Below, in pieces: positions 1-50,574 of a stretch of DNA of 50,574 nucleotides. The notes under the pieces are model-generated. The model was not told where the DNA came from, searched no databases, and saw nothing but the letters and a program-made list of their open reading frames with translations. Both the position numbers and the translations under genes were made by a program. Positions within the stretch are counted from its first letter, which is position 1; every line of letters begins with the position of its first letter. This stretch comes from an uncultured Bacilli bacterium. Lineage in GTDB: Bacteria > Bacillota_I > Bacilli_A > RF39 > UBA660. The DNA lies in contig CANQXT010000002.1 of NCBI GenBank assembly GCA_947627915.1, positions 1-50,574 on the forward strand, in the 5' to 3' direction.

Positions 1-110
1 TCTTTTTCATCTATTATTCGATTACTATATGATTTATATGTTATATTTATTAACATTATCTCTATGATTACTAATATTGTTACTATTATTTTTTTGTTAA
101 TACTTTTCAT
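1..110 (-). CDS. Small membrane-anchored protein, 5' part only (runs off window); paralog of the 146-aa protein at 18915..19355
   Basis: Reverse-complement reads ATG (108-110) then MKSINKKIIVTILVIIEIMLINITYKSYSNRIIDEK..., open to the window edge. It resembles MKKIIIGVLVIIEIFSLYMMYQINNSK of 18915..19355 and sits behind the same 41-bp promoter module. Too short for the ORF track. Confidence 0.5.
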   Translation of the reverse strand, partial: MKSINKKIIVTILVIIEIMLINITYKSYSNRIIDEK

Positions 111-140
111 TATTAATCATCTTACCCTTACTATAAGATA

Positions 141-167
141 ATTATATAATACCCCCCCCGGTGTCAA
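141..167 (-). promoter_or_regulatory. Sigma-A-type promoter TTGACA-15bp-TATAAT with a G8 run in the spacer (copy 1)
   Basis: Minus strand reads TTGACA(167-162) CC GGGGGGGG(159-152) TATTA TATAAT(146-141). The 41 bp at 132..172 are identical to 19412..19452. Confidence 0.5.
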
Positions 168-175
168 GTTTTAGC

Positions 176-203
176 AAAAAAAATGTTGCTTGAAAGCAAC
201 ACT
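176..203 (-). terminator. Rho-independent terminator after rpoC
   Basis: Minus strand reads TGTTGCTT-tc-AAGCAACA stem followed by a T8 run, 4 nt after the rpoC stop. Confidence 0.7.
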
Positions 204-206
204 TTT

Positions 207-3200
207 TTAAGCAGCAGCTAAATCATCATCATTATCTGCTAAGAATTTTTCTTCTAATACTTCACTAGCGTCATCATCTAATAATTGTTTTTGAAGTTCT
301 AGTTCAATATCACTATATTGTTTAGCACCAGTTCCAGCTGGAATTAATTTACCAATTATAACATTTTCTTTTAATCCGACTAGATTATCAACTTTACCAC
401 GCATTGCAGCATCAGTTAAAACTCTAGTTGTTTCTTGGAATGATGCAGCAGATAAGAATGAATCAGTTTCTAGAGATGATTTAGTAATACCTAACATGAT
501 TGGATTTCCTTTAGCAGGAGTTCCACCATTTAAGATAACTGGTTTATTGCCATCAGCAAATTCTCTTAGAGATACTGTTAAACCTTCAACAAAGTCTGTA
601 TCACCAGCATCAATTATTCTTACTTTATTAATCATTCTCTTAACTATTATTTCAATATGTTTATCGTTAATATCAACACCTTGTAATTTATAAACATTTT
701 GAATTTCTTTTAAGATATATTCTTGTGCTGTAAGTGGATCTGTAACTGCTAGTAATTCTTTTGGTGAAATAACACCTTCAGTTAATTTATCACCAGCGGA
801 AACTTCATCACCAACTTCTACTCTAACTTTCATATTATAATTTGTAATATGTTCTTTAACACCAGAGGCATTTTCAATTACAATAGAATGTTTACCATTT
901 TGTTCTTCAACACTTATTACTTTACCAGTAATTTCCGCAATTGTAGCTTTAAATTTAGGAATACGAGCTTCGAATAATTCTTCTACTCTTGGAAGACCTT
1001 GAGTAATATCATCTCCACCAGCTACACCACCAGTATGGAATGTACGCATTGTAAGTTGGGTACCAGGTTCACCAATTGATTGAGCAGCCATAATACCAAC
1101 TGCTTCACCAGTTTCAACTAAGTTACCTGTTGCAAGGTTACGTCCATAACATTTTTGACATACACCACCAACTGTTTTACAAGTAAGAACACTTCTTATT
1201 TCAACTCTCTTAATACCTGCTTTTTTAATTTTAGCAACGATATTTTCGGTAATCATTTCGCCAGCTTCAAGAATAGTTTCTTTTGTTTCTGGATTAATAA
1301 TTTTTTTAGAAGCATATCTGCCTAAAATACGTTCTTCAAGTGATTCAATAACTGAACCATCTTTATCATTAATTAAATCATATACTACTACACCTTGCAT
1401 TGAACCACAATCATGTTCTTTAACAATAATGTCTTGAGCAACATCAACAAGTCTTCTTGTTAAATATCCTGAATCGGCAGTACGTAAGGCAGTATCTGCT
1501 GAACCTTTTCTTGAACCATGGGTTGATAAGAAGAATTCTGATACGGATAATCCTTCCATAAAACATGAAGTAATTGGAATTTCAACAGTAGTACCATCTG
1601 GTTTAGCCATTAAACCACGCATACCAGCAAGTTGGGTAAAGTTAGAAATCTTACCACGAGCACCACTATTCATCATCATAAATATTGGATTTGTAAAGTT
1701 ATCTTTGGCAATTTCTGCTAAAGCATCTTTAACTTTATCAGTTGCTTCTGTCCAAATTTGAATAACGCCATTATATCTTTCTTGTTCTGTAATAAGACCT
1801 TTTTGATATTGTTTATTAATTTTATCTACTCTAACTTTAGCTTCATCAATAATTTTATCTTTAGCATCACTTCTAACTACATCAGCAGCAGATACAGTAA
1901 TACCTGCAATTGTAGAATATTTAAATCCTTGATCTTTTAATTTATCAAGCATTACAGAAGTTTCTGTTGTTTTATATCTTTTAAATACTTGGGCAATTAT
2001 TTGACCTAATGTTTTTTGAACAAAAGGACTTACAAGTGGCATTTCTTTAATTGCTTGTTCTAAATTAGTACCTTTTTCTAAGAAATATTTACTAGGGGTA
2101 ATACCTTCAATATTTTCTTTAGTTCCTTCATTTAAATAAGGGAATGAATCAGGTAATATTTCATTAAATTTAATCTTACCTACAGTTGTAACTAAATATT
2201 TATCCATTTGTTCTTCGGTAAATAATTTATGTTTAAATGATTTAACTGGAATAGCAATTCTTGTATGTAAATCTATTTCTCTTCTTTCATAAGCCATTAA
2301 AGCTTCATTACAATCTTTATAAGCTTTACCTTCATTATTATGTCCTGTTTCTTCCATAGTTAAGTAACAGTTACCAAGTACCATATCTTGGCTTGGTGTA
2401 ACAATAGGTTTTCCATCTTTTGGATTTAAGATATTATTAGCCCCTAACATAAGAATACGAGCTTCACTCTTAGCTTCTTCTGATAATGGTACGTGGACAG
2501 CCATTTGGTCACCATCGAAATCGGCATTAAATGCGGTGCAAACAAGAGGGTGTAAACGAATAGCTTTTCCTCCAACAAGTTTAGGTTCAAATGCTTGAAT
2601 ACCTAATCTATGTAGAGTTGGAGCTCTATTTAACATTACTGGATATTCTGTTATAACATCTTCAACAATATCCCAAACACATTCATCTCTTGATTCAATT
2701 AATTTTTTAGCTCCTTTAATATTATGAGCTAAACCTCTTTCAACTAAACCATGAATAACATGAGGTTTGAAAAGTTCAATAGCCATTTCTTTAGGTAAAC
2801 CACATTGATACATCTTAAGATTTGGTCCAACAACGATAACTGAACGACCAGAGTAATCAACACGTTTACCAAGTAAGTTTTGACGGAATCTTCCTTGTTT
2901 ACCTTTTAACATACTAGATAAACTCTTAAGTGGACGATTAGAGGCAGCAGTGATACTTCTTCCTCTTCTTCCGTTATCAAATAAAGAGTCAACAGCTTCT
3001 TGAAGCATACGTTTTTCATTTTGAACAATGATTGTTGGTGCTCCAAGTTCAAGTAATTTCTTTAAACGATTATTACGATTAATTATTCTTCGATATAAAT
3101 CATTTAAATCACTTGTTGCAAATCTACCACCATCAAGTTGAATCATTGGTCTAAGTTCTGGAGGTATTACTGGTAAAACAGTTAAAACCATCCATTCAGG

Positions 3201-15835: not shown

Positions 15836-17272
15836 TTATATCTTATAAATTTTATCTTTATTACGATAATATAATTTTCCTATTATAGTTATTAATACTA
15901 TTATTCCAATAATACCTACAATACTATAAAATCCTGTTTGGGGATTTTCAACAGTTTTATCAGCATTAGGTGATGTTTGGGGTTTATTTTCTGTTATAAT
16001 ATCTTCAGTTTTACCAGGATCTACCGGAGTTTCAGGTTTAGGATCATTATTTTCTAATACATTTGATAAATATGCAGTATATGTATTATCTTGATTATCA
16101 TCATATTTTACATAATAACCTTGAGGTGTTGTAATATTAGTATCTTCTATAATATTATTTAAAATAATTTTGCCATCATAAAAGTTTAAATTATATCCTT
16201 CACGATAACCATATTTAAAATTACCACTATTTATATATATTAATGGTGATTCACTTGTTACATTATCATCATTCTTACCAATTGTAATATTATTAAATAA
16301 AATTCCTTCACTATTTTTAGCATCAATAACCCCACCATTTATATAAAAATGATTATTATCTTTAGTATTAGAAGCATCACTTAAAATATAAGCTTTAGTA
16401 TTTGAAGTAATTGTTCCGTTATTAAAAATAATATCTACATTTTTAGCTAACACACCAAATAATAAAGCAGAATCAATTGTATTAAAAGTACCATTATTTA
16501 TTTCTATTGTTGTTTTATTTTCACCAAATAAACTAGCAAAAGAATTAACAATATTTTTTACATTAAAAACACCATTATTAATAATTGTACTACTTCCAGT
16601 CTCAAAATCTATTAATGCTGTATTAGAAGTAAAATTTCCATTATTTATAGTAAATGTACCAGATGTATTTCTAATATGAAATGTATTCATATTAAAGTTA
16701 TATGTTCCATCTTCAATTGTAACTAAATTTCGATTTTCAAGAAAAACACCTTGAGTTGTATAATTACCATTTTTAATAGTAACTTCTCCTGTTTTAATAT
16801 TTAGTATAAAATAAGACATACTTTCACCATTTAAGGTAACTTCTTCTAAAGATAATTTTCCTGAATTATAAAAATAATAATTAGCTTCAATATGTTCTGT
16901 ATTTAAATCATCAATATTTAAATTATTTAAGGATAATTCACCAGATTCTTGATTATTTATTGAAACAGGAAAATCTCCAGTTGTTGTAGCAATCAATTTA
17001 CCTGGTCCTTTTATTTCTAATTTACCACTATTATTTATATTACTATTAAAAGAATGACTATTTAAATTAAGACTAATATTTTTATCTTCACTAACTTTTA
17101 TTGAAGTTGCTTCATCACTTAATAAAAGTATTTCATCATTTTCAACTGCTTCATCAATTGCTTCTTGTAAAGTTTCATACTCTTGTTCTTTAATTTTAGC
17201 CACATTTTCAGCATTAACAATACTAGGATACAAAAATAATATTGTTAATACAGTTAAAATAACTCTTCTCAT
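15836..17272 (-). CDS. Cell-wall-anchored beta-helix repeat surface protein with NPQTG sorting signal
   Basis: 478 aa with a signal peptide and repeated NNG(N/V/T)F..N units typical of right-handed beta-helix adhesins. C-terminus is NPQTG + hydrophobic helix + YRNKDKIYKI. Confidence 0.8.
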   Translation of the reverse strand: MRRVILTVLTILFLYPSIVNAENVAKIKEQEYETLQEAIDEAVENDEILLLSDEATSIKVSEDKNISLNLNSHSFNSNINNSGKLEIKGPGKLIATTTGDFPVSINNQESGELSLNNLNIDDLNTEHIEANYYFYNSGKLSLEEVTLNGESMSYFILNIKTGEVTIKNGNYTTQGVFLENRNLVTIEDGTYNFNMNTFHIRNTSGTFTINNGNFTSNTALIDFETGSSTIINNGVFNVKNIVNSFASLFGENKTTIEINNGTFNTIDSALLFGVLAKNVDIIFNNGTITSNTKAYILSDASNTKDNNHFYINGGVIDAKNSEGILFNNITIGKNDDNVTSESPLIYINSGNFKYGYREGYNLNFYDGKIILNNIIEDTNITTPQGYYVKYDDNQDNTYTAYLSNVLENNDPKPETPVDPGKTEDIITENKPQTSPNADKTVENPQTGFYSIVGIIGIIVLITIIGKLYYRNKDKIYKI

Positions 17273-17304: not shown

Positions 17305-17334
17305 ATTATATATTACCATCACCTTAAGTGTCAA
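17305..17334 (-). promoter_or_regulatory. Sigma-A promoter TTGACA-18-TATAAT plus conserved leader GTTATAAAGTAAAG
   Basis: Read on the minus strand upstream of 15836..17272. The leader (17288..17301) is identical to 27517..27530. Confidence 0.5.
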
Positions 17335-17381: not shown

Positions 17382-17410
17382 TAAAAAGAAAGAGATTTTT
17401 ATTCTCTTTC
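17382..17410 (-). terminator. Rho-independent terminator of the cassette operon
   Basis: Minus strand reads GAAAGAGA-ataaaaa-TCTCTTTC followed by TTTTT. Homologous hairpin at 49226..49251. Confidence 0.6.
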
Positions 17411-17449: not shown

Positions 17450-18892
17450 TTAATTAGATGGAGAAAGAACGAGACGAAAGCCATAGGCTTCGGAAGCAAT
17501 ACCATTATGCCCATCGAAGTGAAACTGACCAGCCATGACTCCATCGGCTTGACATCCTCCTCGAAGGAACCACGGGTAAGAAGAGTCAATGAAGTACGAG
17601 TCATCAGCATACCAAACGTTATGATAATGTTTAGCACTATTTTTATCCCAATAGTAATAGAATGGTCCCATCTCTCCTGTTGCATCTCCTAAGATTCTGT
17701 TACTATATGAGTTAGTATCACTTGGATATTTATCTATATAACCATTTTCTACCTCTTTTGTTAAGTCTAATTCATTTGTAAAACCACTACTACCTACAGT
17801 TCCTTCCCTATAAGCAGCCATATATTCGTGTGCTCCTCCAGACATATCATATACACCTGTTATATTTCCAGTTGTACTTGCTAAGTAACCTGTTGGAGTA
17901 TTATATGGTTGAGTTGTTTTGTCATCTGTTCCATATGTTCCTAGATAAATACTTTGATCAGTATTTGCTGCTGCGCTATATCCTGTTTTATATTCTGAAT
18001 TATTATTTATTCTTATTTCTGTTCCTATTCCATATTTAGAATGTGATAAGTATGCTACTGCTCCCCATTCTGTATTCTTCATCATATGACTATCTAATGT
18101 CTCTCTTGCATAATTTTTTCCGGCATCAAAAAATGTTTTTACTGTTGCACTTCGCCATGAGGTTACGTTTGGCTTTACTACCATATCGGTTGATGATGTT
18201 CCTCCGGTTTCGAACTTTCCTACCCATATGCCACTTAATTCTTTATCTCCTAATGTAAATGCTGGATGGGTTAACCAGTCTCCATCTTTTGCAGCACTAC
18301 TTTTATTTGTTTCTTTACTTTCAAACTCGATATTGATTAATCTTGCTTGTCCTAATGCTTGGGTTGTTGAGGTATTATAATTATCATTTGTTAATGTATT
18401 TCCTTCTTTTGCATCATTATCACTATTTATATGCCATACTTGATATTTATATCTTGGTATCCAGACAAAGTATCCATTTATATCAGTTTCTTCTATTTTT
18501 TGTCCTACCGAATAACTTTTACCTTTTTGTAATATTACGGCATTAGCCCATCTTTTCTCACTATAGTTATACCATTCACTATGTTTATTGGCATAATATA
18601 CATCTCCATTTGGTTTTATCTCTACTGGTATTAAATCTCCTTTTAGTACAGGATCATTTCCTTTTAATTCTTTATCAGTCCATTCTTCCTTATGTAACCC
18701 ACTTCTTTCATATAATTCATCTATGGATTCTTGAACATTATTATGTTCTCCATGACTTGTTGTATTATCATATGTTACTTCTTCACTATCTATCATTGTA
18801 CTTTCGGCATATACGATACTTATTGATATTATTACTATTCCTATTATTATTCCTATTAATATCTTATAATTATTTTTTATTACTTTCTTCAT
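17450..18892 (-). CDS. Secreted FGE-sulfatase / C-type-lectin-fold (SUMF1-like) protein with hypervariable C-terminus
   Basis: 480 aa with a signal peptide (..SIVYA/ES). FGE-fold landmarks are VTSWRSATVKTF..KNTEWGAVAYL, GVYDMSGGAHEYM, RGG....GFRLV. The last ~55 codons switch to A-poor, GC-rich codons. Confidence 0.85.
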   Translation of the reverse strand: MKKVIKNNYKILIGIIIGIVIISISIVYAESTMIDSEEVTYDNTTSHGEHNNVQESIDELYERSGLHKEEWTDKELKGNDPVLKGDLIPVEIKPNGDVYYANKHSEWYNYSEKRWANAVILQKGKSYSVGQKIEETDINGYFVWIPRYKYQVWHINSDNDAKEGNTLTNDNYNTSTTQALGQARLINIEFESKETNKSSAAKDGDWLTHPAFTLGDKELSGIWVGKFETGGTSSTDMVVKPNVTSWRSATVKTFFDAGKNYARETLDSHMMKNTEWGAVAYLSHSKYGIGTEIRINNNSEYKTGYSAAANTDQSIYLGTYGTDDKTTQPYNTPTGYLASTTGNITGVYDMSGGAHEYMAAYREGTVGSSGFTNELDLTKEVENGYIDKYPSDTNSYSNRILGDATGEMGPFYYYWDKNSAKHYHNVWYADDSYFIDSSYPWFLRGGCQADGVMAGQFHFDGHNGIASEAYGFRLVLSPSN

Positions 18893-18914
18893 ATCTTAAC
18901 TCTTCTTTCTTTTT

Positions 18915-19355
18915 TTAAAAATTTGCTTTATATAATTCATCTATTGCACATTGAATATTTGTACAATTTGTTCTATTATTTGAATTATCATATATTAATA
19001 TACTGGCCATCAACTTTTCAAAGTACAATATACAATATGTTGTTTCTGTATTACTTAATGTTATTGTTCCATGATTATATTTTATTTCTGGATCTTCTAG
19101 TTTATCTCCTTTTTCATTCATACATTCTGTTTTAGATAAATCTAATGTATATCCTTTCTCTGGCCAATTAGTTTTCTTATATTCTGTATACGTTCCATCT
19201 CCATTTTCATCCCAATATACTGCAAAGACATCTTTATTTATTTTATTATTTTTTATATTTACTTCATTTAAACTTTTACTATTATTTATTTGATACATCA
19301 TATACAATGAAAATATTTCTATTATTACTAGTACTCCTATAATTATCTTCTTCAT
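18915..19355 (-). CDS. Small N-terminally membrane-anchored protein, first gene of the cassette
   Basis: 146 aa. It has one N-terminal TM helix and ends NIQCAIDELYKANF. It lies 22 nt upstream of the FGE-like gene. No family recognised. Confidence 0.75.
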   Translation of the reverse strand: MKKIIIGVLVIIEIFSLYMMYQINNSKSLNEVNIKNNKINKDVFAVYWDENGDGTYTEYKKTNWPEKGYTLDLSKTECMNEKGDKLEDPEIKYNHGTITLSNTETTYCILYFEKLMASILIYDNSNNRTNCTNIQCAIDELYKANF

Positions 19356-19420
19356 TTCTTAACCCTCTCTTTTATGTTGATAACTCTTATCTATTTTGCT
19401 TTTCTCTATTTTATAAGATA

Positions 19421-19447
19421 ATTATATAATACCCCCCCCGGTGTCAA
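19421..19447 (-). promoter_or_regulatory. Sigma-A-type promoter TTGACA-15bp-TATAAT with a G8 run in the spacer (copy 2)
   Basis: Minus strand reads TTGACA(19447-19442) CC G8(19439-19432) TATTA TATAAT(19426-19421). Identical to 141..167. Confidence 0.5.
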
Positions 19448-19455
19448 GTTTTCAT

Positions 19456-19481
19456 TAAAAAAATGTTGGGGAAAACCAACA
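19456..19481 (-). terminator. Rho-independent terminator after polA
   Basis: Minus strand reads ATGTTGG-ttttcc-CCAACAT followed by T7. Confidence 0.7.
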
Positions 19482-19496
19482 TTTCACAGTTATAAT

Positions 19497-22049
19497 TTAT
19501 TTAGCATCATACCAATTAATACCTGAATTAATTTCTATTTTAAGTGGTACTTTTAGTTCTACAATATTTTCCATTGCATCTTTTAAAATATCTTTTAGTT
19601 TATCAACTTCATCTTCACAAGCATCAATAATTATTTCATCATGAACTTGTAAAATCATTTTACTCTTTAAATTAACTTCTTTAATTTTATCATATACTTT
19701 AATCATAGCCATTTTCATAATATCAGCACTACTACCTTGAATTGGAGTATTTAAGGCCATTCTTTCCCCCATTGTTCGAGTATGAAAATTAGTATCTTTT
19801 AATTCTTGAATTTTTCTTATTCTTCCAAACATTGTTTTAACTTCACCAGTTTTATAAGCTTCTCTCACAATATCAGTCATATAATTCTTAACTCCTGGAT
19901 ATAGTTCATAATATTTTTCAATAAATTTATTAGCTTCTTCTCGAGAAATATTTAAATTTTCCCCTAAACCAAAACCACTTATCCCATATACTATTCCAAA
20001 TATAACTGCTTTAGCTGTACTACGCATATGTTTAGTAACTTCTTTTTCACTTACTCCATTAATGTCCGCTGCTACTTTAGTATGAATATCTTCATCATTA
20101 ACAAAAGCATCAATTAATTCTTTACAATTAGATATATGCGCTAATATTCTTAATTCAATTTGGGAATAATCAGCACTTATAATAAGATCATTACTAGGAA
20201 TAAATGCTAATCTTATTTTCTTACCCAATTCTTCCTTAACCGGTATATTTTGTAAATTAGGTTCCATTGATGATAAACGACCAGTTCTTGTTAGAGTTTG
20301 ATTAAAGATAGTATGTATTTTACCATCATCTAAGACATAAGTTGGTAATCCTTCAATATAAGTTGATAATAATTTATTTAAATTACGATATTCTAATACT
20401 TTAGATATAATAGGATGTTTATCAATATATTTAGTTAATGTTTTAATATCAGTTTTATATCCCCTATTAATTTTTTTACTCTTACCTATACCCATTTTTT
20501 CAAATAAAACAATACCTAATTGTTTAGGACTAGCTATATTAAACTTTTCACCACTTAAATCATATATTTCATGACTTATTATATCAATATTTTTAATAAT
20601 ATCTTCTTTCATTTTATTAAGAGGACTAGCATCAAATTTAAAACCTGTTTTTTCCATATCTGCTAATACTTTTATTAAAGGCATTTCAATATTATTAAAT
20701 ATATCTTCTTGTTTTAACTCTTTAACTTCTTCCATTATTTTATCAGCATATTCATAAATAAATTTACTTTTTAAACAAATATTATTTCTTAAATTACTAA
20801 AATTATTTTTTTTATCTTCTTCATAAGAAGAAATATTTTCATCAAACATATGCATAAGTTCTGTAATATCATCACTTGCTTTATCTTGAACTAAATAAGC
20901 AGCGACCATCATATCAAAATGACAATTTAAATCAGTATCTAATTTAATTAATACTTTTTTTAAATCATATGTTAATATTTCTTTATCTTTAATTAGAGGT
21001 ATAACATCTTTAATTAATTCATTCTTAATATAATAAGTATTATTTTGATCAGTAATACTTAAACCAAGAATATTTCCTTTATGATAATTTATATCATCTA
21101 CTTCTAAATAAAGAGCTATTTTATCTTCTAACTTTAAATCTTTTATATTATTTATATCTATTATATTAAATTCTTTGATTTCTTTTTTAACTGGTAAATT
21201 TTTTAACATAGAAAAGAATTCTAATTCTTCATACATTTCTTTTAAATGTTCATAATTATACCCATTATATTTAAATTCTTCAAAATTAACATTTAAAGGT
21301 ACATCTCTATATATAGTAGCAAGTTCATAACTCATATAAGCATTCTCTTTATCTAAATCTAATTTTTCTTTTGTTTTACCTTTAATTTTATCTATATTAT
21401 TATATATACCATCTAAAGATCTATATTCTTGTAATAATTTTAAAGCTGTTTTTTCTCCAATTCCTTTAACCCCTGGAATATTATCTGATGAATCCCCCAT
21501 TAATGCTTTTAAATCAATTATTTTAATTGGTTCTATACCATATTCTTTTTGAAAACTTTCATTATTATATCTAATAAATCCAGTTTGTTTTAATAATTTT
21601 ATTTCTGTTTCAAAACTAATAAGTTGTAATAAGTCTTTATCACTTGAGACAATTAGTGAATAATATTCTGGATCACTTTCCGCAAGTTTAGCAACTGTCC
21701 CAATTATATCATCTGCTTCATAAGGACACATTTCTAAATATTTTATCCCCATCGCATCTAATAACTTTCTTGCTAGTGGCATTTGAATTTTTAAATCTTC
21801 TGGTGTTTCACTCCTTCCCTCTTTATAAAAATCATATTTTTCTTTTCGAAAATTCTTACCTATATCAAAGGCAACCATCATATATTCTGGATTTTCCTCA
21901 TTAACTATTTTATTAATCATTCCTGCAAAGCCATACAAGGCATTTGTTGGAAAACCTTTACTATTACGCATTATCGTACCTGTATAGGCCGTTGCATAAT
22001 AAGAACGAAATAATAAATTATTCCCGTCAACTAAAACTACTTTCTTCAA
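19497..22049 (-). CDS. polA: DNA polymerase I
   Basis: 5'-nuclease domain (VLVDGNNLLFRSYYA), 3'-5' exo-like domain, and Pol A motifs (DYSQIELRILAH, QVHDEIIID). The TTG at 22047-22049 with a GGTGA RBS is preferred. The ORF track start 22064 is also a TTG but has no RBS. Confidence 0.95.
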   Translation of the reverse strand: MKKVVLVDGNNLLFRSYYATAYTGTIMRNSKGFPTNALYGFAGMINKIVNEENPEYMMVAFDIGKNFRKEKYDFYKEGRSETPEDLKIQMPLARKLLDAMGIKYLEMCPYEADDIIGTVAKLAESDPEYYSLIVSSDKDLLQLISFETEIKLLKQTGFIRYNNESFQKEYGIEPIKIIDLKALMGDSSDNIPGVKGIGEKTALKLLQEYRSLDGIYNNIDKIKGKTKEKLDLDKENAYMSYELATIYRDVPLNVNFEEFKYNGYNYEHLKEMYEELEFFSMLKNLPVKKEIKEFNIIDINNIKDLKLEDKIALYLEVDDINYHKGNILGLSITDQNNTYYIKNELIKDVIPLIKDKEILTYDLKKVLIKLDTDLNCHFDMMVAAYLVQDKASDDITELMHMFDENISSYEEDKKNNFSNLRNNICLKSKFIYEYADKIMEEVKELKQEDIFNNIEMPLIKVLADMEKTGFKFDASPLNKMKEDIIKNIDIISHEIYDLSGEKFNIASPKQLGIVLFEKMGIGKSKKINRGYKTDIKTLTKYIDKHPIISKVLEYRNLNKLLSTYIEGLPTYVLDDGKIHTIFNQTLTRTGRLSSMEPNLQNIPVKEELGKKIRLAFIPSNDLIISADYSQIELRILAHISNCKELIDAFVNDEDIHTKVAADINGVSEKEVTKHMRSTAKAVIFGIVYGISGFGLGENLNISREEANKFIEKYYELYPGVKNYMTDIVREAYKTGEVKTMFGRIRKIQELKDTNFHTRTMGERMALNTPIQGSSADIMKMAMIKVYDKIKEVNLKSKMILQVHDEIIIDACEDEVDKLKDILKDAMENIVELKVPLKIEINSGINWYDAK

Positions 22050-22145
22050 TTTAACTTCACCCAATTATATTATATCTAAAAATATACACATTGTAAAAGT
22101 ATTTAAATATTAAATTAACATATAATTTATAAGGATGTGTTATTT

Positions 22146-22835
22146 ATGTTTTTACATTTTTTTAATTTGATTAAAGATATGATTTTCTTTACTGGTTCTT
22201 ATGGTAATAATGTTTTTCCTCCACCCCTTACCCCTGAAGAAGAAAATATGTATGTTGATAAAATGTTACAAGGCGATAATGAGGCCCGTAGTAAACTTAT
22301 TGAACATAATTTAAGATTAGTTGCCCATATTGTTAAAAAATTTGATAGTAAAAATACCGATACAGATGATTTAATATCGATTGGAACAATTGGTTTAATT
22401 AAAGGAATAGATACTTATAAAAAAACTCCTACTGTTAAAATAACTACTTATGCTGCTAGATGTATTCAAAATGAAATCTTAATGTATTATAGAAGTAATA
22501 AAAAGAATCAATTAACTATCTCTTTAAATGATTCCATTGGTTATGATAAAGAAGGAAATGAAATTAATTTAGTTGATATGTTAGAAGACAAAAAAGAAGA
22601 TATTATTGATACTTTACAAATTAAAGATAATATTGCTTTATTAAACAAATATATGCAAAAATTAAATAAAAGAGAAAAAGAAATAATTATTAAAAGATAT
22701 GGTTTAAATAATGAAAAAGAATTAACCCAAAAAGAGATTGCTGACTACTTAGGAATTTCTAGAAGTTATGTCTCTAGAATTGAAAAAAGAGCTTTAACTA
22801 AAATATTAAGAGAATTTAAATTACATAATAATTAA
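22146..22835 (+). CDS. sigK: Pro-sigma-K (late mother-cell sporulation sigma factor), uninterrupted
   Basis: FPPPLTPEEE..IEHNLRLVAHIVKKF..DLISIGTIGLIKGIDTY..ISRSYVSRIEKRAL closely parallels B. subtilis SigK, including a ~20-aa hydrophobic pro-sequence. The ATG at 22146 has an AAGGA RBS. The ORF track start is a GTG at 22137. Confidence 0.9.
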   Translation: MFLHFFNLIKDMIFFTGSYGNNVFPPPLTPEEENMYVDKMLQGDNEARSKLIEHNLRLVAHIVKKFDSKNTDTDDLISIGTIGLIKGIDTYKKTPTVKITTYAARCIQNEILMYYRSNKKNQLTISLNDSIGYDKEGNEINLVDMLEDKKEDIIDTLQIKDNIALLNKYMQKLNKREKEIIIKRYGLNNEKELTQKEIADYLGISRSYVSRIEKRALTKILREFKLHNN

Positions 22836-29462: not shown

Positions 29463-29491
29463 TAAAAAAAGTAGACACTAAATATCTACTT
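29463..29491 (-). terminator. Terminator after the collagen-like gene
   Basis: Minus strand reads AGTAGA-tatttagtg-TCTACT followed by T7. Confidence 0.6.
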
Positions 29492-29499
29492 TTCTTTAA

Positions 29500-30035
<536 letters not shown>

Positions 30036-35588: not shown

Positions 35589-37355
35589 CTAATCTACTTC
35601 TTTTTTAGTTATAACTTTAATTAATAATACTATTAGAAAGATTACTATACTACTAGATATAATTATAATAAGACTATTTTTTTTAAATGTCGTAACAAAA
35701 TTATTATTTTGAATATTCTTATCAATTAAAACATTAATATTTTTATCTGGGGTATTATCATGTTCAATTAAATTACTTTCTTTTATAGAATCATTAGTGT
35801 AAGCTTTAATAGTTAATTGAAAATTACCCCCATCTAATAAACTAACATCAGCATAATTATCGCCATCAATGGATATAAATTGAACATCACTTGTTAATTT
35901 AATATCTTCATAATTACCATCTAATTTTAAAGAAACTCCTAAATTAATATTATTATCACTTGATAATTTAATTAATATAGTAAAACGATCACTTTTTATA
36001 ATTGGTTTATTATTTATTTTAATTGTATCATAACCAACAAATTTTGAAACACCTTCCGCTATTTTAATGGCATTATTAGTATTCTTTTCTTCACCATTAG
36101 CAAAATATACTTCATATTTTTGATTTGGTTCGGTAAAAAACATTGATACTTCTTGTAATTCTTCATTATTACTACTCTTTTTATCAAAGAAACTCAATAA
36201 ATTAACTGTTTTTCTATCAATATTATAAACAGCATTATAACCTAAATAATCATAATAATAACTATAGTCTTCAACTTCATTAGAAGCATTAAAAAATCCT
36301 ACTACATTACCGCATATATGAATATCATCATAAGATACATATTGATATCCTTTATCTCCAATATTAATATAAACCATATTATTATTTATATAAACATCTT
36401 CTATATTTACTTCATATAAATTAGATATTAAGAATATTATTCTATCTTCAGTTAATTCATCTAAAGACATAATATTTAATCTATTATTATATTTATTAAA
36501 TAACATATTTCTTATACTATTAACTGAACCAATAGACATACTTTTACCATATGAATTTTGAATAATAAAAGCACCATTTCTAGTTGGAGGATTAGAGGTA
36601 CCAAATTCACTTACAGATACATTATCATCCCAACCAATAATTGTTACACCATGGTTAACGTTTTGATTGGCGGCGATTTTATTACCTAAAAGATCTTCTC
36701 TTTCTAAACCATTATAATAATTATATTTTTTAAAGACATTTGTATTATCTACATACATAGTTGCTGCTAAAGCCCCATTAGTAATTAAATATTCTTTTAT
36801 ATCACTTATAACACTTGGTGTACATTTACTATTAGTACCTATAAAGGCAATCGAATTAACATCTATTTTTCCTTTAACATTAGTTACTTCATTATTATTT
36901 ACTAAAATATTATTATTATATAAATTTAATAGTTTAGAAAAAGGTAATTCACTTTCATAAACTGAACCATAAGAATTCATTAAATATGCTGCTGAAACAT
37001 AAAAGTTTCCCCCATTATTAACGCTTCTTTTAAAAGTATCATTATACATATATGTACTTTGTGTAGCTAATTCTAAGTGTGCTTCTGATAAATCATAATA
37101 ACCCATATTATTTAATAATAAGTTACTTTCAATAGAAGTGTTTGTAGCAAAAGCCCAACAAGCATTAGTATTATTTTGATTTTTAACATCAGTTAATAAA
37201 TTATAATTTCTTAAATCAAAATGGGTATCAGTTGGACTAACATTATTAAATTTTGAATTAGCTTGTTCAAAAACAAAACGATCATTACTTGAAGCATTTA
37301 CTCTTGGAACAAATATTAATAATAAAATTATAACTGCAACTAATATCTTTTTCAT
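35589..37355 (-). CDS. Papain-family (C1) cysteine peptidase, secreted, with C-terminal membrane anchor
   Basis: 588 aa with a signal peptide. Catalytic Cys in NACWAFAT, His in VNHGVTIIGWD, Asn in IIQNSYG. C-terminal TM helix IIISSSIVIFLIVLLIKVI. Confidence 0.85.
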   Translation of the reverse strand: MKKILVAVIILLLIFVPRVNASSNDRFVFEQANSKFNNVSPTDTHFDLRNYNLLTDVKNQNNTNACWAFATNTSIESNLLLNNMGYYDLSEAHLELATQSTYMYNDTFKRSVNNGGNFYVSAAYLMNSYGSVYESELPFSKLLNLYNNNILVNNNEVTNVKGKIDVNSIAFIGTNSKCTPSVISDIKEYLITNGALAATMYVDNTNVFKKYNYYNGLEREDLLGNKIAANQNVNHGVTIIGWDDNVSVSEFGTSNPPTRNGAFIIQNSYGKSMSIGSVNSIRNMLFNKYNNRLNIMSLDELTEDRIIFLISNLYEVNIEDVYINNNMVYINIGDKGYQYVSYDDIHICGNVVGFFNASNEVEDYSYYYDYLGYNAVYNIDRKTVNLLSFFDKKSSNNEELQEVSMFFTEPNQKYEVYFANGEEKNTNNAIKIAEGVSKFVGYDTIKINNKPIIKSDRFTILIKLSSDNNINLGVSLKLDGNYEDIKLTSDVQFISIDGDNYADVSLLDGGNFQLTIKAYTNDSIKESNLIEHDNTPDKNINVLIDKNIQNNNFVTTFKKNSLIIIISSSIVIFLIVLLIKVITKKEVD

Positions 37356-42966: not shown

Positions 42967-44253
42967 TTATATATTATATTTCTTGATTTCAATTCTTTTT
43001 AAATCTTTATCATATCCTATTTGAGATAAACTTCTTGTTAAAATTTTTCTTACACCCTCTTTAGTAAGATTAAACATTTGCCCAATATCTTCTAAAGATT
43101 TTCTTTCACCCATAAGTCCATAACGTAACATAATAATTTCTTTATTTCTTTTACTAATATCCGATAGTTCAATATTATTTTTAAATTCTTCTATATATAA
43201 TTTTAAATCAATATAATCAGTAAATGCTTGACTTGTATCTTCTAAATAGTAATTAAGATCTTTGTCATCATTAATATAAGTATCTAAACTTAAAATATCT
43301 TCATTATCTAGTAATAATTTTTTAACTTTATTTATAGGTAATTTCATTTCGTTTGCTAATTCTTCTATAGTAGGATATACCCCATTTATTAAATAAAAAG
43401 TTTGTTCTTTATTATGTAGTTCTAATAATAAATTATATGTTAAACTAGATAATCTTATGGTTCTATTATTATTTTTTAAAGCATTATTAATATATTGTCT
43501 TATCCAAGAAACTGCATAAGTAGAAAAATAATTAGGACGATTTAAATCAAACTTTTCAGCAGCTTTTAAAAGACCTAAACGTCCTTCTTGAATTAAATCT
43601 TCCCTATCTATTTTACCATTCTTTATTTTAAATAAATGTTTATTTACAACATATAACACTAATTTATCATTTTTAATAATTAATTCTTCTTTAGCTTTAT
43701 TATCACCATTTTGAATTCTTCTAATTAATTCTCTTTGTTTTTGATAATCATAATTATTATTTATATTTTTAAGGTTAGATGAATTAAGATAATTTTCATA
43801 TATTATTAATAATCTGCTTATATTATTATTAAGATTACTTTTATTATTTAAATTATTATAAAGATAAGAAATATTTTCTTTAAATTTATAATTTTCTTTT
43901 AATAAATCATTAATAATATTATCTTCTAAATATATTTCAAAATAATTTAATATTTTAATAAAACCATTAATATTTTTTATAGCGTTATATAATTTATTTA
44001 TTTCTTGAAAATTATTATTTATATAATTATTTATTATAAATAATAATTTATCATTATCTTGCATAATAATATTAAGATATTCTTTTAATTTATCATTAAT
44101 ATATATATTTATATCAATTTCTTTTTTATTTAACTTATTATATTCTTCTAAACATTTTCTTAATAATTTATAAAAGATATCATCAGAAATAATAACATTA
44201 TATTTTTCTTTTATTAATAATATTTCTTCATTTAGTAAAATATCTTTATCCAT
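42967..44253 (-). CDS. Sigma-70 family sigma factor (group 1/2-like core) with ~170-aa N/I/K-rich N-terminal extension
   Basis: Region 2 DLIQEGRLGLLKAAEKFD..FSTYAVSWIRQYI, region 3 YPTIEELANEM, region 4 IIMLRYGL..SLEDIGQMFNLTKEGVRKI. Confidence 0.8.
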   Translation of the reverse strand: MDKDILLNEEILLIKEKYNVIISDDIFYKLLRKCLEEYNKLNKKEIDINIYINDKLKEYLNIIMQDNDKLLFIINNYINNNFQEINKLYNAIKNINGFIKILNYFEIYLEDNIINDLLKENYKFKENISYLYNNLNNKSNLNNNISRLLIIYENYLNSSNLKNINNNYDYQKQRELIRRIQNGDNKAKEELIIKNDKLVLYVVNKHLFKIKNGKIDREDLIQEGRLGLLKAAEKFDLNRPNYFSTYAVSWIRQYINNALKNNNRTIRLSSLTYNLLLELHNKEQTFYLINGVYPTIEELANEMKLPINKVKKLLLDNEDILSLDTYINDDKDLNYYLEDTSQAFTDYIDLKLYIEEFKNNIELSDISKRNKEIIMLRYGLMGERKSLEDIGQMFNLTKEGVRKILTRSLSQIGYDKDLKRIEIKKYNI

Positions 44254-49284: not shown

Positions 49285-50574
49285 TTAATTAGATGGCGAA
49301 AGGACGAGGCGAAACCCAATGTTGCTAGCACCACCGGTGCTCCTAGCGAAGTAGAACTGACCCGCCAAGACACCATCGTCGTAACCGCCTCCTCGATGGA
49401 ACCACGGGTACGAAGAGTCAACGAAGTACGAATCGTCAGCGTACCAAACATTATGATAATGTTTAGTACTATTTTTATCCCAATAGTAATAAAATGGTCC
49501 CATTTCTCCAGTTGCGTCTCCTAAAATTCTTTTACTATATGATGTTTCAGTACTTTCTTTTGGATATTTATCTATATAACCATTATCCATTCCAGTTTTT
49601 AATTCTTCTGTGGAAAAACCACTACTTCCTACGTTTCCATCTATACACGCTGCCATATATTCCCATGCTCCACCTGACATATCATATATACCACTTATAT
49701 TTCCAGTTGTACTTGCTAAGTAACCTGTTGGCGTATTATATGGTTGAGTTACACTTTCTTCTGTACCATATTTTCCTTGATAACTACTTTGATCTGTATT
49801 AGCTGCAGCTGAATAGCCAGTTTTATACTCTGAATTATTATTTATTCTTATCTCATTTCCTATGCCATATTTAGAATGGGATAGGTATGCTACTGCTCCC
49901 CATTCTGTATTTTTCATCATATGACTATTTAATTCACTTTCATATTCTTTTCCAGCATCAAAGAATGTTTTTACTGTTGCATTTCGCCATGAGACAACAT
50001 TTGGTTTTACTATTACATTATCTGCATCTCCACCTGTTTCAAATTTTCCTACCCATATCCCACTTAACTCTTTACTTCCTAATGTAAATGCTGGATGAGT
50101 TAACCATTCTCCATCTTTTGTAGCATTACTTTTTGTAGTATTTTTACTTTCAAACTCAATATTGATTAATCTTGCTTTTCCTAATGCTTGAGTTGTTGAA
50201 GTCTCATAATTACCATTTGTTAATTCACTTCCATCTCTTTCATCTTCATCACTATTATAATGCCATACTTCATATTTATATCTTGGTATCCAGACAAAAT
50301 ATCCATTTATATCATTTTCATCTATTTTTTGTCCTACAGAATATGTCTCTTTTTTTCCTTCATTTAATATTACAGCATTAGCCCATCTTTTTTCACTATA
50401 GTTATACCATTCACTATGTTTATTTGCATAATACACATCTCCATTTGGTTTTATTTCAACTGGGATTAAATCTCCGGTTATTACTGGATCATTTCCGTTT
50501 AAATCTTCTTCTTTCCATTCATCTTTATGTAACCCACTTCTTTCATATAATTCATCTATGGCTTCTTGTACATT
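49285..50574 (-). CDS. FGE-sulfatase / C-type-lectin-fold secreted protein, paralog of 17450..18892 (5' end off window)
   Basis: The frame stays open to the window edge. 50437..50574 encodes NVQEAIDELYERSGLHKDEWKEEDLNGNDPVITGDLIPVEIKPNGD, matching aa ~52-97 of the other copy. By eye the body is roughly 80% identical, and the C-terminal ~35 aa are far more divergent. Confidence 0.85.
   Translation of the reverse strand, partial: NVQEAIDELYERSGLHKDEWKEEDLNGNDPVITGDLIPVEIKPNGDVYYANKHSEWYNYSEKRWANAVILNEGKKETYSVGQKIDENDINGYFVWIPRYKYEVWHYNSDEDERDGSELTNGNYETSTTQALGKARLINIEFESKNTTKSNATKDGEWLTHPAFTLGSKELSGIWVGKFETGGDADNVIVKPNVVSWRNATVKTFFDAGKEYESELNSHMMKNTEWGAVAYLSHSKYGIGNEIRINNNSEYKTGYSAAANTDQSSYQGKYGTEESVTQPYNTPTGYLASTTGNISGIYDMSGGAWEYMAACIDGNVGSSGFSTEELKTGMDNGYIDKYPKESTETSYSKRILGDATGEMGPFYYYWDKNSTKHYHNVWYADDSYFVDSSYPWFHRGGGYDDGVLAGQFYFARSTGGASNIGFRLVLSPSN

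Follow-up and report, generated by a model that had tools for sequence, protein, structure and literature searches.

The 50,574-nt window (the whole stretch of DNA analysed, 26.3% GC) encodes rpoB/rpoC, polA, SpoIVA, SigK, a class B sortase, MurD and a collagen-like protein, a gene content that indicates a walled, spore-forming, low-GC Firmicute. On its minus strand lies a two-gene operon whose reading frames were found as the initial annotation had described them. The first encodes a 146-aa protein (18915..19355) with an N-terminal hydrophobic anchor (MKKIIIGVLVIIEIFSLY...). The second, separated from it by 22 nt, encodes a 480-aa protein (17450..18892) with an N-terminal anchor and a modelled C-type-lectin/FGE-sulfatase-like fold. 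A terminator-like hairpin on the minus strand (17410..17388), 3′ of the 480-aa gene, closes the operon. At the other end, a terminator-like hairpin with a T-run (19460..19485, minus strand; –10.4 kcal/mol, z = –3.5) sits just 3′ of polA and directly 5′ of the operon promoter, so that expression of the operon would depend on this promoter alone.

The promoter region on the minus strand (19452..19412) reads AAAAC TTGACA CC GGGGGGGG TATTA TATAAT TATCTTAT. It consists of a perfect-consensus –35 hexamer, TTGACA (19447..19442), a CC that starts the spacer (19441..19440), a run of eight G (19439..19432; C8 on the plus strand), a TATTA that ends the spacer (19431..19427) and a perfect-consensus –10 hexamer, TATAAT (19426..19421). 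CC, G8 and TATTA add up to a spacer of 15 bp, roughly half of which is the G run. Transcription is predicted to start near 19414. An identical 41-nt twin promoter is present on the minus strand at 192..132, with TTGACA-CC-G8-TATTA-TATAAT at 167..141 (C8 on the plus strand at 152-159) and the same 15-bp spacer, so that in both window copies a homopolymer lies between recognisable –35 and –10 hexamers. Such an arrangement is far from expected in DNA of this composition: TTGACA-N15-TATAAT occurred twice in the window compared to 0.07 ± 0.26 times in 100 dinucleotide shuffles, and G8 likewise occurred twice compared to 0.07 ± 0.26. The two promoter tracts are the only G/C runs of seven or more in the window, and the next longest is a single C6. 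Reading of the minus strand between 19447 and 19421 (19447..19421) thus bore out the earlier description of perfect hexamers, a 15-bp spacer and a G8 tract whose only counterpart in the window is the one at 152-159, with both copies in the same G8 state.

Both window copies, each together with the hairpin that precedes it, fall within a 73-nt direct repeat of 86% identity; as duplicates, they represent one invention rather than two independent events. The hairpin that precedes the twin promoter is the terminator after rpoC (177..208, minus strand; –16.3 kcal/mol, z about –3.5). Hairpins with different stems also precede promoter copies in three metagenome contigs described below (L008, L010 and L011). 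The gene that starts behind the twin promoter (MKSINKKIIVTILVIIEIML..., 1..110, minus strand) runs off the window; compared with the N-terminus of a 424-aa glycine-rich protein encoded behind another copy of the promoter (L005), its product shows 94% identity over 36 aa. The window also holds a second copy of the 480-aa gene (49285..50574, minus strand; 85-89% nucleotide identity), whose 5′ end and promoter lie beyond the window end.

Sixteen copies of the promoter core were read in total: the two in the window, seven loci in three rabbit-gut MAGs and seven ENA contigs. The MAG loci (L001-L007) came from a scan of the genome contigs of the GTDB genome collection with the pattern CTTGACACCGGGG-N0-10-TATTATATAAT, which would accept G4 to G14. 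It returned one G8 and six G9 tracts, in three MAGs only, all listed as 'uncultured Bacilli bacterium'. The flanks were fixed by this pattern, and part of the apparent spacer conservation in L001-L007 reflects that choice; this does not hold for the seven ENA metagenome contigs (L008-L014), which were reached through homologues of the 146-aa protein and in which gene and promoter are both present. The ENA assemblies behind these contigs are ERZ27249451, ERZ27249446, ERZ27060145, ERZ27248980, ERZ27249317, ERZ27249555 and ERZ27060504. Among the latter, L010, L011, L012 and L013 have G8, L008 and L014 have G9, and the more distant L009 reads TTGACA-CTC-G8, giving a 16-bp spacer. Taken together, TTGACAC(C/TC)-Gn-TATTATATAAT contains G8 in 8 of the 16 copies and G9 in the other 8; none of the 16 has a tract shorter than G8, longer than G9 or interrupted by another base, and a 17-bp spacer or a G10 is found in none of them, the states seen being 15 and 16 bp. 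Tract length, which the initial annotation had proposed to compare across related genomes, thus does vary between constant flanks, among copies that stand at different loci.

One MAG, Lapin-014 bin22, contains both lengths, and agreement within a genome is common (G8 in 2 of 2 copies in the window, G9 in 3 of 3 in Lapin-016 bin2). The only clear same-locus pair, L008 and L014, which derive from two samples and have identical upstream DNA, carries G9 in both members with genes that differ by 7%. All of these sequences are consensus assemblies, several of them at 1.4-5.7x coverage.

We compared the variability of the core with that of its surroundings in seven close copies. The 37-nt core, from the –35 hexamer through TATCTTATA, had no substitution and a single indel column, which is the tract. 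In the same seven copies, 7 of 57 sites (12%) were variable in the remainder of the 5′UTR, about 68 of 441 (~15%) in the 146-aa gene and 39 of 60 in the 60 nt upstream of the promoter. On these counts, constraint is stronger on the core than on the gene, and the core varies in nothing but tract length. The persistence of an uninterrupted G run in genomes of 24-30% GC argues for selection on the tract itself.

When L008 and L010-L014 were aligned with window positions 19356-19500, the cassettes were 90-97% identical at the nucleotide level behind wholly different upstream DNA. Each cassette usually starts at the terminator hairpin, the stem sequence of which differs with the pairing kept. Near-identical cassettes behind different upstream DNA indicate that the cassette is multi-copy or relocates. 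In viral contigs, searches for the promoter and for relatives of the 480-aa protein both came back empty; the cassette is thus not phage-borne in that collection.

A scan of JGI metagenomes with exact flanks, TTGACACCGGG-N0-12-TATTATATAAT, gave no match, and a relaxed search for seven or more G followed by TATTATATAAT gave 28 loci, among which only L019 and L025 are relatives, the rest being unrelated. In these two distant relatives, which come from another metagenome, a G7 with a 3-nt flank lies upstream of homologous proteins with TYAYF signals. The spacer there measures 15 bp if the –35 is read as TTGAAA/TTAAAA and 16 bp if it is read as TTTGAA/TTTAAA. Either reading gives 15-16 bp, and a spacing of this size could be a geometry that works and has been conserved, not an OFF state.

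Other G runs were seen at comparable positions in unrelated DNA. In the unrelated contigs L036 (1227-1246), L040 (119-138), L018, L030, L031 and L039, a G8-G10 run lies between a TTGACA-like box and TATTATATAAT; these are candidate further G-tract promoters. L036 and L040 have G9 and a TATAAT spacing of exactly 17 bp, and L018, L030 and L031 have a TATTAT at a spacing of 18-19 bp. In moss-associated metagenomes (L015, L016, L021, L022, L023 and L042), a homologous low-GC locus carries a tract at the same site just before TATTATATAAT, with G7 in five and G11 in L021. Here the length clearly varies at one and the same site, in a sequence that is unrelated and may be organellar.

The genes that follow the core are mutually non-homologous. 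An N-terminal 'IIEI' anchor module is found in the 146-aa protein of the window, in the product behind the twin promoter and in the 424-aa protein of L005, which has a glycine-rich ALK/LTK-like domain. In L004, a 416-aa protein with the 'IIEI' module is the second gene, behind a 257-aa first gene. SipW-type TYAYF signal peptides mark the products of L001 (537 aa) and L007 (451 aa, with a LamG domain), and in L003 the core stands before a cluster of small helical proteins. The gene pattern of this last cluster had raised the suspicion of a T7SS, which Pfam did not support. All genes behind the core look secreted or membrane-anchored, the cargo being of surface type by its N-terminal anchors and TYAYF signals, its modelled C-type-lectin fold and its LamG and glycine-rich domains. 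Surface and host-interaction proteins are the gene class usually under phase variation. The association of one core with non-homologous genes indicates a reused promoter module, and not merely co-duplication with one gene family. The same reuse at many loci, as opposed to a device private to this operon, leaves room for reading the element as a fixed regulatory site.

The protein sequences themselves point to modular shuffling of surface-protein parts, through a repeated motif and a fused N-terminal module. The C-terminus of the 146-aa protein (NIQCAIDELYKANF) echoes a motif near the N-terminus of the 480-aa protein (NVQESIDELYERSG), encoded at window positions 18903-18959 and 18683-18739, respectively, and the N-terminal ~110 aa of the 146-aa protein form a module that is joined, in the L004 (416 aa) and L005 (424 aa) proteins, to large domains that differ between the two. 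No Pfam or NCBIfam family matched the 146-aa protein, and the same two collections gave nothing for the 480-aa protein or for a 478-aa N-rich secreted protein also encoded in the window (15836..17272). Exact-protein look-ups returned no match for the window 146-aa and 480-aa proteins or for the NCBI-only cluster members P0002, P0007 and P0016.

Several other window genes were noted. A collagen-like GXX-repeat protein (gene 29502..30023, minus strand) contains about 28 tandem 9-nt units (29464-29868); it resembles Scl/Lcl/BclA-type adhesins, and its repeat number is likely length-variable. A 588-aa protein (35589-37355, minus strand) with a papain-family cysteine protease domain and a lectin-like domain is probably another secreted or host-interaction protein. 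A 428-aa sigma-70-family protein (42967..44253, minus strand), encoded upstream of fmt and oriented like it, carries a long extension at its N-terminus. Its scores against RpoD models were only 127-150 bits, a long way short of the cut-offs, which leaves two readings: a primary sigma factor of an unusual kind or an uncharacterised alternative one.

The second gene of the operon belongs to a large family: its homologues number more than 7,900, in many cases with several on one contig, and some are recorded with PF03781 (FGE-sulfatase). An AlphaFold model of the 480-aa protein built from a 32-sequence alignment (pLDDT 79.9, pTM 0.83) had its best PDB structural matches in TaqVP (E 4e-10) and Bordetella phage Mtd (E 1e-4), with modest TM-scores of 0.34-0.44; TaqVP was also the only sequence-level match in the PDB. 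The last ~160 nt of both gene copies (17450-17612 and 49285-49447) are GC-rich and contain 15-17% A, compared to 43-44% over the remainder of the gene. Residues 429-470 of the alignment (the C-terminal ~45) show invariant positions in alternation with columns whose entropy exceeds 3 bits. The hypervariable columns lie at residues 431-470, and 91% of the residues in them are NNY-encodable compared to 76% in control columns. By this base composition and the modelled fold, the 3′ ends of the 480-aa genes look like DGR variable regions: a C-type-lectin fold, a C-terminal variable region and A-poor coding DNA are features they would have in common with the DGR variable proteins TaqVP and Mtd. Unlike in DGR systems, searches of the 50.6-kb window and of the fetched loci gave neither a template repeat nor a reverse transcriptase, which makes DGR activity a lead rather than a finding. 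A DGR may act in trans, with template repeat and reverse transcriptase elsewhere in the genome. If the DGR reading is true, the operon would pair expression switching with binding-site hypervariation. A full-text literature search gave no paper linking DGR targets to homopolymer phase variation.

We next consider what the spacing means for this promoter. Other near-consensus intergenic promoters in the window have spacers of 17-18 bp, so that 15 bp is short for this organism; measured against them, the 15 bp of G8 fall clearly short and the 16 bp of G9 are acceptable. The initial annotation had supposed that one or two additional G would bring the spacer to 16-17 bp. The first half of this holds, as G9 with 16 bp does occur, and the second does not, as G10 and 17 bp are absent from all 16 copies; with natural states of 15 and 16 bp only, what is left of the supposed gain is at most the step to G9 and its 16 bp. 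Of the –10 candidates, TATAAT alone is conserved in every copy. An AATTAT at 18 bp, which a promoter scan ranked as the best –10, was discarded on the grounds that only TATTATATAAT is conserved across copies and the sequence after it differs. We also considered whether the geometry of G-tract DNA could compensate for the short spacer. A-like G tracts are under-twisted and shorter per bp, and would by this reasoning worsen the shortness, and the idea was dropped.

Further sequence elements were observed around the promoter. A second perfect promoter, AAACTTGACA-N18-TATAAT (17334..17305, minus strand), lies upstream of the gene for the 478-aa N-rich secreted protein. It has AAACTTGACAC and TATATAAT in common with the G-tract promoter and no G run; CTTGACAC and ATATAAT are likewise in common, with TTAAGGTGATGG in place of the G run. 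This promoter could be a relative of the same module that lacks the G run and is 'locked'. The motif TTATCAACA(T/A)AAA occurs in the 5′UTR in the window (19371-19385) and in L008-L014, and about 25-45 nt upstream of the –35 in L002, L004 and L007, with variants in L019/L025. TATCTTATA, right after the –10, is invariant in the 146-aa cassettes and appears as its reverse complement in L002-L004. Either of these two elements could be a regulator site. Rfam has no RNA family matching the window or L001-L009, so no riboswitch or leader accounts for the conserved 5′UTR.

The reading we favour, at somewhat better than even chances, is that a sigma-A promoter with a slippage-prone G tract in its spacer acts as an on/off switch of the surface operon. 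Holoenzyme with the housekeeping sigma (sigma-A/sigma-70 type) would use TTGACA and TATAAT, and replication slippage at the G run would add or remove one G. G8, with its 15-bp spacer and poor geometry, would leave the promoter weak or OFF, and G9, with a near-optimal 16-bp spacer, would turn it ON or raise its output. The operon so controlled would comprise the 146-aa anchored protein and the 480-aa lectin-fold protein. As the same 28-nt module has been copied before several unrelated secreted or surface operons, each of these could switch independently. The anatomy of the module, the conservation of its core and its G8/G9 polymorphism were read directly from the sequences, and it is from these that we infer switching; the polymorphism would have to arise at high frequency and reversibly, and the change from 15 to 16 bp would have to alter transcription. 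Support for the switch comes from an anatomy far beyond chance, the G8/G9 split, the invariant core, the short spacer, the insulation of the operon, the surface-type cargo and the precedents discussed below. The earlier claim that the tract gates this particular surface operon stands insofar as its products are anchored and terminators bracket it, and is weakened insofar as the element is not private to the operon.

Several of the same observations can be read differently. The module may instead be a fixed regulon promoter or operator, a conserved recognition site that includes the G run, with G8 and G9 as rare, slow indels of little or no effect. Variant forms of this explanation invoke a spacer-binding regulator, or an activator, required because a spacing of 15-16 bp keeps the promoter deliberately weak. 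The spacer elements CC, Gn and TATTA, and TATCTTATA beyond them, do not change between loci with unrelated genes or among several genomes, and conservation of the whole spacer argues against a pure slippage device, which needs only the tract. This apparent conservation is inflated by the search pattern that fixed the flanks of L001-L007, and the flank does vary in L009, where CTC replaces CC; the core, moreover, has no palindrome or known operator motif. A fixed site also fits with the occurrence of just two adjacent lengths, neither giving 17 bp, which speaks against a freely slipping tract, usually seen over more lengths. Tract length is nonetheless all that varies in the core, and its 8:8 split among 16 copies, with both lengths in one MAG, is what a mutable tract gives. 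The concordance of L008 and L014 at one locus counts against the switch and for a fixed site, as do the mostly agreeing lengths within one genome and the 15-bp (or 16-bp) spacing that L019/L025 retain with a different flank and G7. A negative precedent exists in the vpma T-tract (PMC2268961). Because of the missing 17-bp state, the L008/L014 concordance, the within-genome agreement, L019/L025, the conserved spacer and vpma, we keep a fixed site as a possible, if rather doubtful, explanation.

It is unlikely, in our estimate, that the two lengths are a sequencing or assembly artefact overlying a true tract of a single length. Homopolymers of 8-9 G are error-prone, and the 1.4-5.7x coverage of several ENA contigs would favour such errors. 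Against this, both lengths occur in long MAG contigs of one study as well as within one MAG, L013 (G8) was assembled at 23x coverage, and L008 and L014 are independently G9 at the same locus; errors would also be expected to yield G7 or G10, which none of the 16 copies has. We consider it very unlikely that the promoter belongs to an alternative sigma factor, either a sigma-B-like factor using GGGTAT as its –10 or one of two factors encoded in the window, SigK (22137..22835) or the divergent RpoD-like protein (42967..44253). GGGTAT, which is the B. subtilis sigma-B –10 consensus, does arise at the junction of the G run and TAT, and the window does encode SigK as well as the 428-aa RpoD-like protein with its low RpoD scores. 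However, both window copies have AAAACT/GAAAAC in place of a GTTTAA-like –35 12-15 bp upstream of GGGTAT, and the sequence does not fit a SigK-type promoter (AC...CATA---TA). A sigma-B or sporulation-sigma promoter was rejected for want of a matching –35, and perfect TTGACA and TATAAT in 16 of 16 copies are a sigma-A signature.

If the switch is real, one reusable promoter cassette randomises the expression of many surface or secreted proteins; together with DGR-like receptor hypervariation, this would give a commensal a compact form of layered bet-hedging. Annotators of metagenomes would then have to take the length of such homopolymers as biological signal, not noise. If the tract is fixed, the element still marks a co-regulated surface-protein regulon. 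More tentatively, and with limited confidence, we suggest that the portable 28-nt G-tract module, present before at least 4-5 non-homologous secreted or surface operons in several genomes of this rabbit-gut, spore-forming Bacilli lineage, constitutes a promoter-level 'phasome' with a 15/16-bp toggle. Here it may be stacked on DGR-type hypervariable lectin-fold receptors, giving two levels of variation: whether a receptor is expressed, and which binding site it presents.

Switches based on spacer slippage are well documented in a few pathogens, in the genera Neisseria, Treponema, Mycoplasma and Bordetella. We know of no description of one in walled, spore-forming gut Firmicutes, and our non-systematic full-text literature searches found none in such organisms. 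What is new here is the setting, an uncultured spore-forming gut Firmicute, and the fact that many unrelated operons draw on one and the same module. In Bordetella pertussis fim2/fim3, a promoter poly-C tract alters the spacing of promoter elements and causes fimbrial phase variation. A C/G homopolymer in the promoter region is common to fim2/fim3 and the present module; the fim tract sets the distance between the BvgA site and the –10, whereas no activator site was identified here. The vlp genes of Mycoplasma hyorhinis have a conserved promoter repeated before every family member. Spacer indels switch surface genes ON and OFF in vlp (poly-A), in M. arthritidis maa2 and in M. mycoides vmm (PMC2268961). 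Those systems involve A or TA repeats and paralogous genes in wall-less Mollicutes, in contrast to the G tract, non-homologous genes and walled spore-former described here. In Mycoplasma agalactiae, the vpma T-tract was found experimentally not to be the cause of phase variation (PMC2268961). Like the G tract it is a homopolymer by the –10 of a surface-protein promoter, the vpma tract directly adjoining the –10, and its inertness means that position alone is no proof of a switch.

The closest parallels are with poly-G promoters. In N. meningitidis porA, as described in PMC7864442 with reference to the original work, a poly-G tract between –35 and –10 sets their spacing and hence the level of transcription, with an optimum of 17 nt. 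The promoter described here resembles porA in having a G homopolymer in a sigma-70-type spacer before a surface-protein gene. It differs in that the natural lengths of porA include the 17-bp optimum, compared to 15 and 16 bp only in our copies, and in that a multi-copy candidate switch before unrelated genes is found in a Gram-positive spore-former and not in a proteobacterium. T. pallidum tp0126 likewise has a poly-G between –35 and –10 and is expressed best at 17 nt; tp0126, tprE/G/J and tprL carry G8-G10 promoter tracts with one-G differences among and within isolates, and the tprL tract ranges from 7 to 11 G within isolates (PMC7864442). The within-isolate heterogeneity (7-11 G) and the reporter effects measured in T. 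pallidum contrast with the consensus G8/G9 available here, and the tpr tracts lie just upstream of the transcription start site, not in the spacer. By its proposed mechanism, the G-tract promoter would belong in one group with those of porA, tp0126 and vlp, in which a repeat likewise lies in the spacer.
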